Below are positions 11,221-18,112 of a stretch of DNA of 18,112 nt, in pieces. Each line of letters begins with the position of its first letter. Positions within the stretch are counted from its first letter, which is position 1. Both the position numbers and the translations under genes were made by a program. Source of the DNA: a virus; UHGV virus genome UHGV-0337628; one strand, 5' to 3'. Under the pieces are notes generated by a model. That model was not told the origin of the DNA, did not search any database, and saw only the letters and a list, made by a program, of their open reading frames with translations.

Positions 11221-11744
11221 TTTCCGAATAGAGTGCTCATCGGTGATGTTTCAATCTGGATTGCGCCGCCGTCTTTGCCTGTTAATTCGTGAGAAGCTTG
11301 TTCTTTAAACGCCTGAACAGAAACATGCTTACCAAGAAGTTCGAGGTTTTTAACCTTATCAGGCCATTTGATTTTCTTCAGAAGTGCGGCGCTATCTGCG
11401 GATACCATCTCCACGACATCCATTCCTGATAGCGTTGTGCGCCATACCTTAGGCCAGTCTTTAATTGGCTTTAACTCGCCGTTTTGCAGGAGAATGTCGA
11501 GCACATCCATCTGGTCGATTTCAATAAGGCGATTAAGTACATATTCTGCATTAATACCAACAAGATCATTGCGTTGCGCTTTCAGTTCGGAGATTCTTAA
11601 CTTGATATCAGGTTTTGACAGGTTTTCGGATGCGGTACGGTTAGCTGTCTTTGCGCTGTACCCCGCCCGAATAGCCGCTTGCGTGGCATTTAAATCGATG
11701 AGGTACTCGCGACAGAACATTTCTTGTTTGTCGGTGAGTGCCAT
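11217..11744 (-). CDS. terminase small subunit
   Basis: 175-aa ORF immediately upstream of and overlapping the large subunit gene; N-terminal helix-turn-helix-like region (MALTDKQEMFCREYLIDLNATQAAIRAGYSAKTA) typical of small terminases. Confidence 0.8.
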   Translation of the reverse strand: MALTDKQEMFCREYLIDLNATQAAIRAGYSAKTANRTASENLSKPDIKLRISELKAQRNDLVGINAEYVLNRLIEIDQMDVLDILLQNGELKPIKDWPKVWRTTLSGMDVVEMVSADSAALLKKIKWPDKVKNLELLGKHVSVQAFKEQASHELTGKDGGAIQIETSPMSTLFGK

Positions 11745-11770
11745 TTTTTACTTCCCATAAGGAGATTGTT

Positions 11771-11953
11771 ATGAACGATGACTTTAAAACAGGTGACATT
11801 GTTAAACTGAAATCAGGCGGACCTGACATGACTATCAGGTCATTTTCATCTACCCACGGTAACTCTTTTCTTTGTCAATGGTTTGCTGGCAAGAAGCTTG
11901 AGCAAGGATATTTCAAACCGGAATCTCTTGAGCGCGTTACCCCAAAGCCATAG
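11771..11953 (+). CDS. DUF2158 (YodC-like) family small protein, 60 aa
   Basis: ATG at 11771 with a strong AAGGAG Shine-Dalgarno 7 nt upstream; product MNDDFKTGDIVKLKSGGPDMTIRS... carries the GDxVxLKSGGPxMT signature I associate with DUF2158/YodC. The track's 11738 start is an in-frame upstream extension lacking a ribosome-binding site. Confidence 0.7.
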   Translation: MNDDFKTGDIVKLKSGGPDMTIRSFSSTHGNSFLCQWFAGKKLEQGYFKPESLERVTPKP

Positions 11954-11997
11954 TCCCAAACACACCAACCTTAACTCTTGATGATATTTCATCATGG

Positions 11998-12237
11998 ATG
12001 ATGTCCGTTTTATCAACAGAGGGTTGCCTTTATCAGCAGGATGTTGTGGATTATCTCGTTAAACAACATAACGAGCAGCACCTCAAAGAAAATGCGGATG
12101 GCAACCAAGCGATATCAACAAAAGTGATTAATAAATTCAGGGTTGATAGCGGTGAAAGTGTTGTTTGGGTTAAGCCAGATAAGTACTGGCGTTTCCGTGT
12201 GCCTGAAGACGAAAACGGTCGTGAAGCTCGCGGTTAA
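11998..12237 (+). CDS. hypothetical protein, 79 aa (second gene of the plus-strand cassette)
   Basis: ORF with protein-like composition (...VVWVKPDKYWRFRVPEDENGREARG); same strand as and 44 nt downstream of the DUF2158 gene; followed by a hairpin. No clear Shine-Dalgarno, so lower confidence. Confidence 0.45.
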   Translation: MMSVLSTEGCLYQQDVVDYLVKQHNEQHLKENADGNQAISTKVINKFRVDSGESVVWVKPDKYWRFRVPEDENGREARG

Positions 12238-12250
12238 ACTAATCAACGAT

Positions 12251-12282
12251 AAAAGGCAGCATGTTGAGTGCTGCCATATTCA
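12251..12282. terminator. candidate bidirectional intrinsic terminator between convergent genes
   Basis: Perfect 7-bp stem GGCAGCA / TGCTGCC (12255-12261 and 12269-12275) with a 7-nt loop; flanked by AAAA on the plus side (giving UUUUAU on the minus transcript) and a T-rich stretch downstream on plus. Confidence 0.45.
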
Positions 12283-12312
12283 TCTCACTTATTTGTTATT
12301 TCAGGTTGAGCA

Positions 12313-12555
12313 TCATGCTCCGGTAGTGAACAGGTCTAACGCTTCCTTCGATTTACGCACCGCTTCGATAGTGCGGGTCGTGATATCCGAATTAGCGCCG
12401 CCTGACTGGAAGTGAATTTTGAATAGCTCAAGCTTCAGCTCGTCAGTGCCAATGAATTGAAATGCTTCTTCTGCGGCTGCGTTCTGGTTCATGACCAGTT
12501 TGTAAATCTCTAACTGGAATTTCTGTTCTTCAGTCATGGGAATAATCTCTGCCAT
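12313..12555 (-). CDS. hypothetical protein, 80 aa
   Basis: ORF with GGAG Shine-Dalgarno 6 nt upstream of the ATG at 12555; acidic, helix-prone product (MAEIIPMTEEQKFQLEIYKLVMNQNAAAEEAFQF...); family not recognised. Confidence 0.5.
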   Translation of the reverse strand: MAEIIPMTEEQKFQLEIYKLVMNQNAAAEEAFQFIGTDELKLELFKIHFQSGGANSDITTRTIEAVRKSKEALDLFTTGA

Positions 12556-12849
12556 TGTTGGCTCCGTTTATCCGTTAAAAGGGATATCAGTTAAGTTATC
12601 CCGTGTAGGGTATAAGCCATTGTCGAGACCACTCATTGAATGGCCTCTGCAATAACCGATGTCTTTCCATCAGTCCGCCACCACAAAGAATCTTTTTTGC
12701 CATAAGGCTGGAGGTTCATCTTTCAGTGGCTGCCAGTGTTATTTCCCCACTTTCTGGCTTGGGTTGCTTCGTGGTACTGCCATAACTGGTTGCCCAGAAT
12801 AAGCTCCGGTTTCATTATCAAGCCCACCCGCAGATAGGCTTTGTAATGG

Positions 12850-13137
12850 CTACTTCTTCAGAAATGATTCGATGAACTCACGCCGGGGATGACGATAGTT
12901 CAGAATATCTTCTGGCATCCTCATAAAGCGGTTGTTGCCGTCTTTGGCAGTAACGAAACAGCTGTGAACTCCGCAGACATCCGTTTTGATCGTGTCGCCA
13001 TACTCAAAAAGCAACTGCGCCATCTTCTCTTGCCATTCTTGCGGCATAGCCTCCATGAATACTCTCGGCATCACGCAGAACGACGCATGCGTCAGGCCAA
13101 ACCACAATTGCAGGTCTTTACGATATTCTTCATCCAT
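12850..13137 (-). CDS. hypothetical protein, 95 aa
   Basis: Internal ATG at 13137 preceded by AAAGG 8 nt upstream and by a terminator hairpin; product MDEEYRKDLQLWFGLTHASFCVMPRVFMEAMPQEW... The track's 13257 start is a TTG and would read through the hairpin. Family not recognised. Confidence 0.5.
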   Translation of the reverse strand: MDEEYRKDLQLWFGLTHASFCVMPRVFMEAMPQEWQEKMAQLLFEYGDTIKTDVCGVHSCFVTAKDGNNRFMRMPEDILNYRHPRREFIESFLKK

Positions 13138-13152
13138 CGTCTTTACCTTTGT

Positions 13153-13181
13153 TGCAATAAAAAGCCCCGCGAATGCGAGGC
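13153..13181 (-). terminator. intrinsic terminator-like hairpin downstream of Rz, immediately upstream of the 95-aa ORF
   Basis: Minus strand GCCUCGC-AUUC-GCGGGGC (7-bp G/C-rich stem, one G-U pair, 4-nt loop) followed by UUUUUAUUG. Confidence 0.55.
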
Positions 13182-13356
13182 TAAATCCTGGTATTTGTAA
13201 TGATCTGGCTCTTATCTCAACGCAACCCCTTACTGCGCGCCAGATGCTCAATATCAAGCATCAGCAATGAGATGTTTAATCTGGATTCACTCCAGAAGCG
13301 ATCACCACCCTGTCTACAGAGCCAGATGTGAAGGATGATGAGTAAAATTATCGCTA

Positions 13357-13824
13357 TCATCGAAGGCATTGCGTCCTGATGTATTCCTGAAGCGTTCTCA
13401 GTGCTGTTTGGTCGCGGATAATTCTGTCCCGGATACCGAGAACGTTTCGTCCAGCAACTGGAGAGAGTTCGACGGTGGCATCATTGCCCATGCCGGAGGC
13501 GCTGGAGGTTTCGTCTGAGGATGGCACAGGGCATTTTCCTTTGACGAGCACCCTGCCACCATTATCAAGCTTCCGCCGAAGAGCATCATTTTCAGCTTTC
13601 GCATCAGCTAACTCCTTCGTGTATTTAGCATCAAGTGCATCAGCATCACGCTGGCGCTGCTGCATGTCAGTAATGGTGGCGGTCGCCTGCTTCAGCTCAC
13701 TGACTTTTTTATCGCGCTGTTCTTTGTAGGTAATGGCGTTATCACGGTAATGATTAACAGCCCATGATAGGCAGACGATGATGCAGATAACCAGAGCGGA
13801 GATAATCGCGGTTACTCTGCTCAT
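13357..13824 (-). CDS. Rz: spanin inner-membrane subunit (i-spanin) Rz
   Basis: 155 aa; N-terminal transmembrane segment and first ~85 residues match my recollection of lambda Rz ([34 protein letters not shown]...[13 protein letters not shown]), then the C-terminal half diverges; start overlaps the R stop. Confidence 0.85.
13398..13604 (-). CDS. Rz1: spanin outer-membrane lipoprotein subunit (o-spanin) Rz1, embedded in the +1 frame of Rz
   Basis: ATG at 13604 with AAGGAG Shine-Dalgarno; product [23 protein letters not shown]... has a signal peptide and lipobox (VAGC) and a Pro-rich stretch, like lambda Rz1; entirely inside Rz. Confidence 0.7.
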
Positions 13825-14604: not shown

Positions 14605-15135
14605 GTCTTACCCCCAATAAGGGGATTTGCTCTATTTAATTAGGAATAAGGTCGATTACTGATAGAACAAATCCAGGCTACTGTGTTTAGTAATCAGATT
14701 TGTTCGTGACCGATATGCACGGGCAAAACGGCATGAGGTTGTTAGCGCAACCTCCTGCCACCCGCTTTCACGAAGGTCATGTGTAGAAGGCCGCAGCATA
14801 ACTATCACTGATGAATTCAGGACAGCCAGTGGCTACGGCTCAGTTTGGGTTGTGGCGGTCGGTGCTGAACTCCGACTTAATGACGATAGGCGTGTACCGA
14901 CGCCTCGTTTTACTTCCTCCGCTTTCACGGCTTCACCCTAGACCAGCTTTACGAAATCCTCGTAAACCTAACCGCGGCAGATATGACCGGCACGGTGTGC
15001 CATATCACGGACCGGCGGGTGTCTCGTTCACCTGATTAACGCATCAGCCTGCGTATTCACCACAACGATAAGAGTACTGCGCGGCACCTTTCACCAATTC
15101 CGCGAGGTCTGCGGGTTCAATGCTCTTACCTGTTG
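14605..15135 (-). other. untranslated late-operon leader, lambda-type
   Basis: About 530 nt without a credible ORF between the candidate terminator and S; the minus-strand sequence (e.g. ...CACGAACAAATCTGATTACTAAACACAGTAGCCTGGATTTGTTCTATCAGTAATCGACC...) matches what I remember of the lambda region between tR-prime and S. Confidence 0.6.
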
Positions 15136-15904: not shown

Positions 15905-16263
15905 ACGTTCTCCAGTTCGGTGATTTTTATTCCAAGCCTTCCGCCTGGTACTTTCACACCACGAATTACGCGAATGTCATCGAATTGCTCGTCGTCTTCC
16001 GCAAATCCGGCGTGGATAAGGGAGTCGAGTAAACCCTTCAGGATGTTATCGAGGTCGCGGCGGCGGGAGTCTGGAACGTCTGCGATGACTTTGATGCGGA
16101 GTCGTGATTTGGTGAAAATGTCTAACTTGAGTTGGCGGATGATTTGCTGAACGTCTTTTCGGTATTTCTGGCCTTTATCGCTGATGTAGTATTGGCTTCC
16201 CCGTCTTCGCCAGTAGGTGTTCACCGACGGCGGGTAAGGAAGCACAAACTGATATTCGTTCAT
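15901..16263 (-). CDS. rusA: Holliday junction resolvase RusA
   Basis: 120 aa; conserved ...DVPDSRRRDLDNILKGLLDSLIHAGF...DD...GGRL... motifs match E. coli RusA (120 aa) as I recall it; sits in the nin region where lambdoid phages carry either Rap or RusA. Confidence 0.85.
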   Translation of the reverse strand: MNEYQFVLPYPPSVNTYWRRRGSQYYISDKGQKYRKDVQQIIRQLKLDIFTKSRLRIKVIADVPDSRRRDLDNILKGLLDSLIHAGFAEDDEQFDDIRVIRGVKVPGGRLGIKITELENV

Positions 16264-16550
16264 GGCTTAATCTTCCCCTCCTTCAGCAGGATCGCCTGCG
16301 TCCTGATCACGCCTTCCAGGTGGTAAAGTCTGGCGTCTTTGTTGTCGAGGTTATGGGTGCGTCGGTCGATTTCATCGTGACACGCGCTACAAGCCCATGC
16401 GCCGATCAGGTCGTCAGGCTTCATTCCCGTTCCGCAAATTCCAGCCATCCGGTAATGTGCCAGAACTGTAGTTTCAGGATTGCCATTGCATACGCCGTAA
16501 ATACGTACCTGACATTCTCTGCCGCGCGCTTCTTTGCGTAGGTTAGCCAT
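16260..16550 (-). CDS. YbcO-like (DUF1364) Cys-rich protein
   Basis: 96 aa with several Cys pairs (CQVRIYGVCNG, CSACHDE); position directly upstream of rusA as ybcO is in the E. coli DLP12 prophage; family assignment from memory. Confidence 0.5.
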   Translation of the reverse strand: MANLRKEARGRECQVRIYGVCNGNPETTVLAHYRMAGICGTGMKPDDLIGAWACSACHDEIDRRTHNLDNKDARLYHLEGVIRTQAILLKEGKIKP

Positions 16551-17272
16551 TAAGCAGCCTCCCCTGTTACTTTCAGCATTCCGTTATCGAGCAGCTTTCT
16601 GGTCAGCCACTGTTGACCACGCCCGGTGATTTTTGTGGTGAACGATATCTGTATTCCGTGATTTGTGTTGACCGCTGTTTCTTTCACTGTGAAATAGCCG
16701 CGATCCATATATTCCTGCATTGGCACATTTCGCCGGGAACCTGAAGCAATAAGGATTTTGTGATCGCGCATCCATGCAAACAGTTTGTTTGGACCAATAC
16801 CGACAACCTTTGCAAAGTTTCCAATCAAAATTCCGCTGGCCTCGCCAACGCGATCGGCAAACTCAACTTTAGGTGCGGCAATTGCGAGCTGGTTTTCCAG
16901 TTGCATTTTCTGCTCAGCAAGATCAGCAGCAAGGCGCAACGCTTCTGGTAGCGTTTTGGGGATATTAACCGCAGCTTCTTCAAGCTCTCGCCAACGGTCA
17001 ACAAGACGAGCGGTGAATTCCGGCGACAACTGAGCGACGACAATAATGCTGTCTCGCTTACCTTGTTCGCCCTCAAAAACGTAAGCCTCTACGCCACGAA
17101 GTAATCCTAAGTTATTGATTTTTTCGAAAACCACCATTGGGGGATTTCGGATCACACCTCGAGCCGCCATTCGTTCAATAGATTGTTTCACCTTGTCATG
17201 ACGACTTCCCACCAACTCAGAGATTTCAATGCTTGTCATTTTGATGGCATTGCCATTTATTAACTCATTCAT
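16550..17272 (-). CDS. phage antirepressor / regulatory protein (Rha-like N-terminal region, KilA-C/ANT-type C-terminal domain)
   Basis: 240 aa; N-terminus ...MTSIEISELVGSRHDKVKQSIERM... is Rha-like; C-terminal half resembles antirepressor KilA-C domains; GGAAGAAG upstream of the ATG at 17272. Confidence 0.6.
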   Translation of the reverse strand: MNELINGNAIKMTSIEISELVGSRHDKVKQSIERMAARGVIRNPPMVVFEKINNLGLLRGVEAYVFEGEQGKRDSIIVVAQLSPEFTARLVDRWRELEEAAVNIPKTLPEALRLAADLAEQKMQLENQLAIAAPKVEFADRVGEASGILIGNFAKVVGIGPNKLFAWMRDHKILIASGSRRNVPMQEYMDRGYFTVKETAVNTNHGIQISFTTKITGRGQQWLTRKLLDNGMLKVTGEAA

Positions 17273-17435
17273 CGTCTTCTTCCTCGTGCATCGAGCTATT
17301 CGGATCGCTCATCAGTTCTGCGCAGCAGTGCTCACACACGTGAACTTCCAGCACATGCAGCTTCTGACCGCAGTTAGCGCACGTTAAAGCTCGCTCGACA
17401 CTTCCTTGTTCGTAACTTCGATTTTGGTCAATCAC
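17265..17435 (-). CDS. ninF: NinF-like protein (56 aa, GTG start)
   Basis: Hand translation of the minus strand gives [56 protein letters not shown], matching lambda NinF (...[46 protein letters not shown]) as I recall it. No in-frame ATG; GTG at 17435 with AGGAAAA upstream. Below the track's 60-aa cut-off. Confidence 0.7.
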
Positions 17436-17614: not shown

Positions 17615-17754
17615 ACGTCCTCCTTTTCCTGCGGTAGTGGTAACACCCCTGTTGGTGTTCTTTCACATCGGAGACACCATCGATTCCAGTAAGGTTGATT
17701 TGGTCGGAAGCGGTTATCTTCTTTGCATTCACCGCACCGATAACATCGCATCAT
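17581..17754 (-). CDS. small zinc-ribbon protein, 57 aa (NinD position)
   Basis: Hand translation: [57 protein letters not shown], with a CxxC...CxxC pattern; ATG overlaps the stop of the upstream gene (ATGA) and GGGAGGGA lies 8 nt upstream; 57 aa as for lambda NinD. Overlaps the NinE start by 34 nt; below the track cut-off. Confidence 0.5.
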
Positions 17755-18112
17755 GCAGCTTCCCTCCCGAAGTCGAAATCAAGCTGCCCTCCAAATATTT
17801 CGCATGACTCAGAACAAGAGCCGGTATCGAATCTTTTAGCTCGTACCATGTCCTGATACAGGGCTTGATAATCATTTTCTGAATACATTTTCGCGATACC
17901 GTCCAGCGACATTCTTCCTCGGTACATAATCTCCTTTGGCGTTTCCCGATGTCCGTCACGCACATGGGATCCCGTGATGACCTCATTAAAAACACGCTGC
18001 AATCCCTCCTCATCTTTGCAGGCAAGTCCGATTTTTTGCGTTGATTTTTTAATGCAGAATATGCAGTTACCGAGATGTTCCGGTATTTGCAAATCGAATG
18101 GTTGTTGCTTCC
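17751..18112 (-). CDS. hypothetical nin-region protein; partial, N-terminus lies beyond the window end
   Basis: The frame stays open from the stop at 17751 to at least codon 18108-18110 (...[22 protein letters not shown]...[12 protein letters not shown]). The track's start at 18092 is a TTG. Family not recognised. Confidence 0.5.

Follow-up and report, generated by a model that had tools for sequence, protein, structure and literature searches.

The gene roi was first described in phage HK022, in 1996. Its product reportedly binds a site within its own gene, beside a site for IHF, with the binding stabilised by IHF. HK022 escape mutants reportedly map in roi and are altered in DNA binding. 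Two papers on Stx phages cite Roi as binding DNA and as having an effect on lytic growth when IHF is mutant (Clerget and Boccard 1996, J Bacteriol 178:4077, as cited there). The Rha proteins of phi80 and P22 give the same phenotype as Roi – they inhibit phage growth in IHF-deficient hosts. Most Stx phages carry roi, and insertions of IS629 into the gene have been suggested, in the accessible literature on these phages, to affect toxin output.

KilAC domains, of which Roi carries one at its C-terminus, have been studied in other proteins. In AriS, from the Listeria phage phi10403S, KilAC inhibits SOS, and regulation of the genes of the phage itself falls to the N-terminal domains of AriS-like proteins, which are AntA/B, Bro-N or pRha (Azulay et al. 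2022, PMC9043618). The Acinetobacter protein CreP consists of KilAC only and blocks cell division.

The roi gene analysed here lies in UHGV virus genome UHGV-0337628, and "the window" refers to the whole 18,112-nt stretch of that genome that was examined. Outside the region of roi, the window is that of a P22-like (Lederbergvirus-type) E. coli prophage, with its lysis cassette and genes for the head, portal, terminase and needle. The features of the roi locus are collected in Table 1. The part of the analysis that goes beyond the accessible literature is a conserved intragenic dyad, a candidate Roi operator, that co-varies with the predicted recognition helix of the protein.

Table 1. Features of the roi locus and their positions in the window
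Feature	Position	Strand	Basis or location
roi coding sequence	16550..17272	(-)	ATG-initiated ORF, 240 aa
ninF	17265..17435	(-)	Pfam NinF; upstream neighbour, stop overlaps roi start
ybcO (DUF1364/HNH-like)	16260..16550	(-)	Pfam YbcO 1.8e-44; downstream neighbour, ATG overlaps roi stop
N-terminal Rha-like winged-helix domain (aa 1-100), predicted	16973..17272	(-)	Phage_pRha below cut-off; AF2 model
Predicted recognition helix, codons 23-34	17171..17206	(-)	candidate specificity residues S23, K27, Q30, S31, R34
13-bp dyad CCCCCAaTGGtGG, candidate Roi operator	17131..17143	(-)	roi nt 130-142, codons 44-48
A/T-rich palindrome TTTTCGAAAA	17121..17130	(-)	between dyad and IHF core; allele types A and E
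IHF core consensus AATCAATAACTTA, predicted site	17108..17120	(-)	roi nt 153-165, codons 51-55
Long linker helix (aa 107-141), predicted	16850..16954	(-)	AF2 helix H107-141
C-terminal KilAC/ANT domain (aa 126-228)	16589..16897	(-)	Pfam PF03374, 9.7e-33

Identification of roi in the window

The 240-aa ORF is roi, a lambdoid-phage gene. Its product is 89% identical to HK022 Roi (215 of 241 residues, E 4e-160) and of equal length. The C-terminal 176 residues (65–240) are identical in the two proteins, and all of the differences fall within residues 18–64. Protein identity to the orthologues of HK022, HK97, HK620, HK75, CUS-3, HK629 and the Stx phages ranges from 89 to 93%. DNA and protein searches of a phage collection gave matches annotated as roi or Roi in HK022, HK97, HK620, CUS-3, HK629, mEpX1/2, VT2-Sakai and many Stx phages. 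A protein 100% identical to the window Roi is already present in NCBI, and roi is found in 19% of complete E. coli genomes.

Pfam identifies the upstream genes on the same strand as those for NinD, NinE and NinF, and the downstream genes as those for YbcO, RusA, NinH and Q. The order ninE-ninF-roi-ybcO-rusA-ninH-Q is common to the window, HK022, HK97, HK620, HK75 and CUS-3. Both ends of roi overlap the adjoining gene: ninF by 8 nt, where the roi ATG meets the ninF stop (ATGAATGA), and ybcO by 1 nt, where the roi TAA meets the ybcO ATG (TAATG). These overlapping junctions are also found in HK022, HK97, HK75 and CUS-3, in which ybcO is named hkbD. Lambda carries ninG in the ninF-ninH interval, and in the Stx phages ninG is directly after roi.

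An earlier reading made without database searches (the sequence-only reading) had reported a 240-aa ORF at exactly these coordinates, between ninF and a YbcO-RusA-NinH block, and the Pfam matches confirm those neighbours. It had further taken the placement to suggest a moron-like insertion; a novel insertion is not what the related genomes show. The window has the canonical arrangement of HK022, HK97, HK620 and CUS-3, and the gene and its placement were already known. Given the orthologue matches and the same order in HK022, HK97, HK75 and CUS-3, the placement of roi has been known for a long time from many genomes and does not represent a new insertion.

Occupants of the ninF-ybcO slot

A comparison of nin regions for presence or absence of the gene, proposed in the sequence-only reading, bore out a polymorphic slot and not a novel insertion. 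88 roi loci (roi at least 80% identical) were sampled. About 58 of these have the order of the window, ninF>roi>ybcO>rusA>ninH, and about 28 are of the Stx type, (arc-like)>ant>roi>ninG. Both recombinant combinations of the two locus types were also seen among the 88.

A second set of 79 loci was sampled by YbcO. Universal presence of roi upstream of ybcO would have spoken against an insertion; roi is the upstream gene in 45 of the 79 loci. The place is taken by an 89-aa ORF in about 17, by a 70-aa ORF in 10 and by a 101-aa ORF in 5, and almost nothing is found there in 2. The ninF-ybcO slot is thus polymorphic, with four alternatives to roi, and roi is its commonest occupant. The variety of occupants in the 88 roi loci and the 79 YbcO loci marks the slot as a true exchange point for cassettes.

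Morons have been defined by a promoter and a terminator of their own flanking the gene, and by their presence at a given position in only some of a set of otherwise similar genomes (Juhala, Hendrix and colleagues, 2000). The slot counts show the second of these features for roi. A scan for promoters and terminators found no promoter-like or terminator-like site at either roi junction, with counts equal to those of shuffles. Because roi overlaps the genes on either side and lacks both a promoter and a terminator of its own, it is not a moron in the strict sense; it is a mosaic cassette of the early rightward operon, without a promoter. The strongest promoter-like site of the region coincides with the 3' end of Q, the place at which pR' is annotated in HK75.

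Domains, predicted structure and allelic mosaicism

The C-terminal ANT/KilAC match (PF03374) scores 113.2 bits against a cut-off of 25.3 and covers profile positions 1–106 of 108. Among characterised proteins, the nearest to the C-terminal half of Roi is the product of an ORF in the lytic replicon of phage P1 (X15638), which we take to be kilA; Roi aa 104–233 and its C-terminal part share 66.9% identity. The N-terminal match to Phage_pRha (PF09669; aa 12–99, 2e-5, 25.5 bits) is just under the cut-off of 29.9 bits, and PF09669 is listed for the identical protein among the precomputed hits of the database. Three homologues (L018, L011 and L013) score above the cut-off, with 48.6, 45.8 and 31.9 bits, and the homologues that pass it are 48–60% identical to the window Roi over the N-domain. 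The domain search therefore sustains the earlier call of a Rha plus KilA-C protein, strongly for the KilAC half and weakly for the Rha-like half, for which the homologues pass the cut-off. Roi also matches PHROG 63, 'anti-repressor Ant' (5.9e-95). There were no matches for Roi in NCBIfam or PADLOC, and a sequence search of the PDB gave chance matches only (ribosomal protein L5, E ~0.6).

A first set of homologues, all at least 92% identical, was too shallow for AF2, and a second search was seeded with a 35%-identical homologue. The AF2 model was made from 118 sequences, with a mean pLDDT of 80.5 and values of 87–93 over aa 11–50. In the modelled N-domain, a strand (11–13) is followed by helices 14–21 and 25–38, two wing strands (46–52 and 58–67) and helices 68–82 and 84–102. 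In the model, helix 25–38 would form the second half of a helix-turn-helix, and a wing made of a beta-hairpin (46–67) comes after it. A Foldseek comparison of the model with the PDB gave nothing below E 0.02 and only weak matches to winged helices of the MarR, CodY and ArsR types. A winged-helix fold for the N-domain is suggested by the AF2 secondary structure together with Pfam. The linker helix is a possible dimerisation element.

Roi alleles are mosaic in the part that differs from HK022. Alignment of seven reference Roi proteins shows at least four alleles of the segment of residues 18–64. The roi gene of the window is an intragenic recombinant, in which nt 61–210 are VT2-Sakai-like and nt 300–400, encoding the linker, are HK022/HK75-like. 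In the window Roi, the VT2-Sakai type extends over residues ~18–64, a segment that includes the wing and the predicted recognition helix.

A conserved dyad and a predicted IHF site within roi

The dyad within roi was examined in 72 distinct N-domain alleles, anchored on the conserved motif EIA(E/D)L. The centre of a palindrome falls in one 6-nt bin in 64 of the 72 alleles, against a background of 0–3 per bin. At the fixed position of the dyad, 46 alleles have a perfect 6+1+6 palindrome and 22 have one mismatch, so that 68 of the 72 have at most one. When synonymous codons were resampled with the protein held fixed, a palindrome at this position was expected by chance at 0.03–0.25 per allele. 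The sequence of the dyad varies among alleles, and a change in one arm is matched in the other. The classes include CCTCAA.TTGAGG, CCCCCA.TGGGGG, CCTGCA.TGCAGG, CCGCCA.TGGCGG and CCACCA.TGGTGG, with a few singletons. Homologues with a C-domain other than KilAC retain both the dyad and the predicted IHF site – the element moves with the N-domain.

The dyad in roi is the only match with at most one mismatch in the window, which otherwise holds a weak two-mismatch match. In the HK75 genome the dyad is single-copy, with no match outside roi, and the best match in the HK022 genome is the roi site. HK022 has 7 near-matches against 2.4 expected, from shuffles that leave a codon bias for CTG, CAG and GCA uncontrolled. 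Because the helix and wing segment of the window roi is recombinant, its predicted operator differs from that of HK022. The predicted HK022 operator is CTGCAtTGCAG, with the candidate dyad CTGCATTGCAG at HK022 34785–34795, and that of the window is the imperfect CCCCCAaTGGtGG.

The sole match to WATCAANNNNTTR in the 18-kb window is the predicted IHF site beside the dyad, with 0.82 matches expected over the whole window. Every enterobacterial allele, HK022 included, has the IHF consensus at the same place in roi, in flanks that are 40–70% identical, and in these alleles the predicted site is 10 bp from the dyad. The exact consensus is present in 25 of the 26 alleles with an [IV]NxL wing, and Leu is encoded by the minor codon TTA in every one of the 26. 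Chance alone, with synonymous codons drawn at random, would produce the consensus at 0.05–0.09 per allele. The 46 alleles with another wing have no IHF site, which makes the IHF element a lineage-specific addition. The palindrome TTTTCGAAAA would be the A/T-rich 5' element of the IHF site.

The predicted intragenic IHF site and the adjoining dyad fit the report that Roi, together with IHF, binds within roi. The window dyad presumably corresponds to the published Roi site of HK022, to go by the binding reported there and by the conservation data.

Dyad sequence and the predicted recognition helix

Sequence variation in the dyad is associated with a small number of residues in the protein. For residues 23, 27, 30, 31 and 34, the adjusted mutual information with dyad class reaches 0.55, 0.73, 0.60, 0.54 and 0.46, respectively. 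Residues 45–47 also peak, and these are encoded by the dyad itself; all remaining variable columns have values of 0.0–0.22. The spacing of the five residues (i, i+4, i+7, i+8, i+11) places them on one face of a helix. Every dyad class has its own helix type: DNVKRT is found with CCTCAA, DKVKQS (the type in the window) with CCCCCA, NVK(V/I)S with CCTGCA, DDVKRS with CCGCCA, and DSVKR(T/S) with CCACCA. The third base of the dyad seems to be determined by residue 27, with N for T, K for C, D for G and S for A.

Part of this covariation could come from co-inheritance, the gap between helix and dyad being only 30–60 nt. Simple linkage is disfavoured, however, because residues 36–43 score only 0.05–0.22, although their codons lie between those of the helix and the dyad and any such linkage would extend to them.

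The dyad of the window has one mismatch, which is at a specificity base and gives it the half-sites CCCCCA and CCACCA. Alleles that share the helix of the window (RHDKVKQSIERL) have the perfect CCCCCA.TGGGGG. The perfect form of the dyad is CCCCCAATGGGGG, against the natural imperfect dyad of the window. Because the mismatch is at a specificity base, self-binding by the window allele, which is common to Stx phages of the VT2-Sakai type, may be weak.

These observations suggest a broader proposal, for and against which we see the case as evenly balanced: that Roi-type Rha domains are self-targeting modules, with the operator in the codons of the wing and a code on the helix face (23, 27, 30, 31, 34) that sets the bases of the dyad. 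If this is true, a promoterless mosaic cassette gains a portable autoregulatory site, with many orthogonal specificities. In the literature searched, no paper was found that describes a family-wide pattern of operators in a protein's own codons. For each of some twelve classes of allele, the proposal predicts the 13-bp dyad that Roi binds and the five residues that decide it. A switch of K27/Q30/S31 to N/R/T, for example, is predicted to make the preference between CCTCAAaTTGAGG and CCCCCAaTGGGGG follow the helix. The role of Roi and Rha, and the harm that they do in hosts lacking IHF, is a 30-year-old question that is hereby made directly testable.

A model for Roi and its alternatives

We consider it probable that Roi is a delayed-early, two-domain protein that binds its own gene with the help of IHF and carries a KilAC effector. 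Lacking a promoter of its own, roi would be expressed as a delayed-early gene by read-through transcription from the early rightward promoter. The Rha-type winged helix would then bind the intragenic dyad, probably as a dimer, with the helix face of residues 23, 27, 30, 31 and 34 reading the variable bases. Host IHF, bound at the neighbouring predicted site, would make the complex more stable by bending the DNA. An operator placed in the coding sequence would be a control element that recombines together with its cassette. The most likely consequence of binding would be a promoter-independent feedback on roi by a block to transcription, possibly acting also on the downstream ybcO-rusA-ninH-Q genes. 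Without IHF, the feedback would break down, to the detriment of phage growth. The KilAC domain would be an effector separable from the N-domain, with the host as its probable target; its nearest characterised relatives, P1 KilA, AriS and CreP, all act on the host. The feedback step has a cost, because Q lies downstream: a roadblock in roi would lower the expression of Q too, which seems costly.

A different account gives the KilAC domain the leading part. The main role of Roi would be host-directed, as in AriS, damping RecA/SOS or blocking division; the N-domain would only tune phage genes, and the harm in IHF-minus hosts would be an overdose of KilAC. AriS-like proteins do match Roi in architecture, with a variable N-domain (pRha among them) joined to KilAC, and their KilAC alone inhibits SOS; CreP, with KilAC only, is bacteriostatic and halts division. 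Both AriS and CreP are, however, distant proteins, from Listeria and Acinetobacter. The KilAC of Roi is 67% identical to the C-terminus of the P1 ORF taken to be KilA, and expression of P1 KilA is lethal. The HK022 escape mutants, reportedly altered in DNA binding, suggest instead that the phenotype arises from the activity of the N-domain. Both the dyad and the IHF site are kept where the C-domain is not KilAC, so that the conserved core is the N-module. On this evidence a mainly host-directed role is possible but somewhat unlikely.

The sequence-only reading called the protein antirepressor-like, a term that is here the label of a Pfam family and derives from no experiment on Roi. The KilAC domains studied experimentally inhibit SOS or division and do not lift repression. 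As a true antirepressor, Roi would use KilAC to inactivate a CI-type repressor of its own or of a co-resident prophage, with anti-immunity or cross-induction as the result; this we regard as improbable. By Pfam, Roi lacks P22_AR_N, P22_AR_C and ORF6N, all of which are found in the adjacent Ant proteins of Stx phages. KilAC is also present in P1 Ant1/Ant2 (in text quoted by Azulay et al. 2022, PMC9043618), yet the same paper treats the antirepression role of these domains as unclear, and its KilAC inhibits induction and does not promote it. A true ant gene adjoins roi in Stx phages, but if Roi were an antirepressor as well, ant and roi in one phage would be redundant. There is no Arc/Mnt-like or LexA-type control upstream of roi, where ninF overlaps its start, and a delayed-early Roi would be made only once repression had already been lifted. 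The database label 'antirepressor' should be read with caution and not as a function.

Less probable still is that the dyad, in place of a Roi operator, is a hairpin in the mRNA, a signal for recombination or for a mosaic boundary, or a side effect of the wing codons: it can fold into a small hairpin (-3 to -12.6 kcal/mol in 25-nt contexts), has a T-run after it in several alleles and lies within the most mosaic part of roi, but its 1-nt spacer leaves only 4–5 possible pairs in most alleles, the 13 distinct one-mismatch dyads have no excess of G.U and have their mismatches at the outermost or innermost pair, codon resampling rules out a by-product of the amino acid sequence, covariation with a helix face encoded 30–60 nt upstream is unexpected for an RNA or recombination signal, and the promoter/terminator scan found nothing at the dyad.

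If Roi does bind the dyad, as the self-binding model holds, the locus would illustrate cleanly how part of a coding sequence can also serve as a binding site for the protein that it encodes.

Comparison with other phage proteins

The P22-type Ant proteins of VT2-Sakai and JLK-2012 are similar to Roi in size, are encoded next to roi and share a database label with it. They differ in domains, with P22_AR_N, P22_AR_C or ORF6N in the Stx Ant proteins and pRha plus KilAC in Roi, and in gene context, since Stx ant has an Arc-like gene upstream and such genes are found only upstream of ant, in loci of the Stx type. There is no ant gene in the window.

The Rha proteins of phi80 and P22 (PF09669) have an N-terminal domain related to that of Roi. 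P22 Rha is not known to carry a KilAC domain, and its gene is in the late region, whereas roi is in the nin region. No rha-like gene is found at the position of P22 rha in the window (11744–13357).

P1 KilA, the founding member of the KilAC family, is encoded in the P1 lytic replicon, and its N-terminal domain is KilA-N while that of Roi is Rha-like (Iyer et al. 2002, as quoted in other work). AriS is distant from Roi in sequence and has an N-domain of its own, AntA/AntB. With its pRha-type N-domain and C-terminal KilAC, Roi has the architecture defined as AriS-like (PMC9043618).

Recombination within roi

Comparison with loci L006 and L001 shows that the roi gene of the window (16550-17272), which encodes a Rha-like N-terminal domain and a KilAC C-terminal domain, is an intragenic recombinant. 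Nucleotides 61-210 are the same or almost the same as those of the VT2-Sakai roi gene; nucleotides 300-400 agree with HK022 and HK75 and diverge from the Sakai gene (16-23 of 30 identical).

Palindromes and near-matches to the dyad

Near its 5' end the gene has a second perfect 6+1+6 palindrome, ATGGCAaTGCCAT, in addition to the dyad that is the candidate Roi operator. About 20 E. coli alleles have this palindrome regardless of their recognition-helix or dyad class; the Sakai-type and JLK-2012 roi genes are without it. The lack of co-variation with the allele makes a role as a Roi site improbable.

A search of the complete HK022 genome for the HK022-type dyad CCTGCANTGCAGG, allowing up to 2 mismatches, gives 7 sites, where 2.4 were expected; none of 100 shuffles reached 7. 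These near-matches include one in gene P (31233) and one in the nin region (33661). The surplus could represent additional weak targets of Roi; alternatively, codon bias could have inflated the count, CTG, CAG and GCA being common codons.

The HK75 genome has a single other near-match to its own dyad, CCTAAAGTTGAGT, with 2 mismatches. It too falls within roi, where it is 270 bp further downstream than the main dyad, and the identical sequence is found in the window roi. This near-match is probably due to chance, because it is conserved across all alleles and so shows no co-variation. In the window, a weak match to the window-type dyad, CCCCCAATAAGGG with 2 mismatches, stands directly before the start codon of the holin gene (14604); chance alone would give about 0.35 matches of this kind over the window.

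Other genes of the window

The interval between the spanin and small-terminase genes (11744-13357), the position of rha in P22, has no rha-like gene. Three ORFs in it have family matches. The PHROG-3527 ORF matches the C-terminal half of its family only and is possibly truncated. The DUF6953 ORF, on the strand opposite to the other two, is the only family-matched gene of the window in reverse orientation, which makes it a better moron candidate than roi, the gene that the sequence-only reading had suggested as a moron-like insertion. Upstream of ninD, an ORF matches PAPS-reductase-like PHROGs over only part of their profiles. Probably this ORF represents the 3' portion of a longer gene, whose start lies ahead of the listed TTG or which continues past the end of the window.

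Positions of features in the window and in compared loci
Feature	Position	Strand	Remarks
DUF6953 ORF	11998-12237	+	
DUF2560 ORF	12313-12555	-	
PHROG-3527 ORF	12850-13257	-	TTG start
CCCCCAATAAGGG	14611-14623		
ATGGCAaTGCCAT	17244-17256		roi nt 17-29
ORF upstream of ninD	17751-18092		TTG start
CCTAAAGTTGAGT	L260:31936-31948		HK75; roi nt 400-412
Alternative slot ORF			89 aa; sequence MSDFSELISFKKDREEM...
Alternative slot ORF			101 aa; sequence MMSELRAGGIAIVIF...
Alternative slot ORF			70 aa
ninF-ybcO slot, example loci	L108:2232-2501; L100:2203-2508; L002:2945-3157		
Roi-N fusion homologues	L013:2501-3208; L014:2824-3534; L015:2110-2716; L016:2501-3208; L019:2501-3211		

Alternatives to roi and to its C-terminal domain

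Three further small ORFs, none with a significant Pfam match, take turns with roi between ninF and ybcO among loci L100-L179.

In prophages of Pantoea, Yersinia, Buttiauxella and Serratia, the N-terminal ~100 residues of Roi are fused to a different C-terminal domain, which has the motif ...KRGSVPxGW...MTPDGQ... and no Pfam match in the two homologues scanned (L013 and L016). Most of these fusion homologues retain the intragenic dyad (clear in L013, L015 and L016), and all except L016 retain the IHF site.
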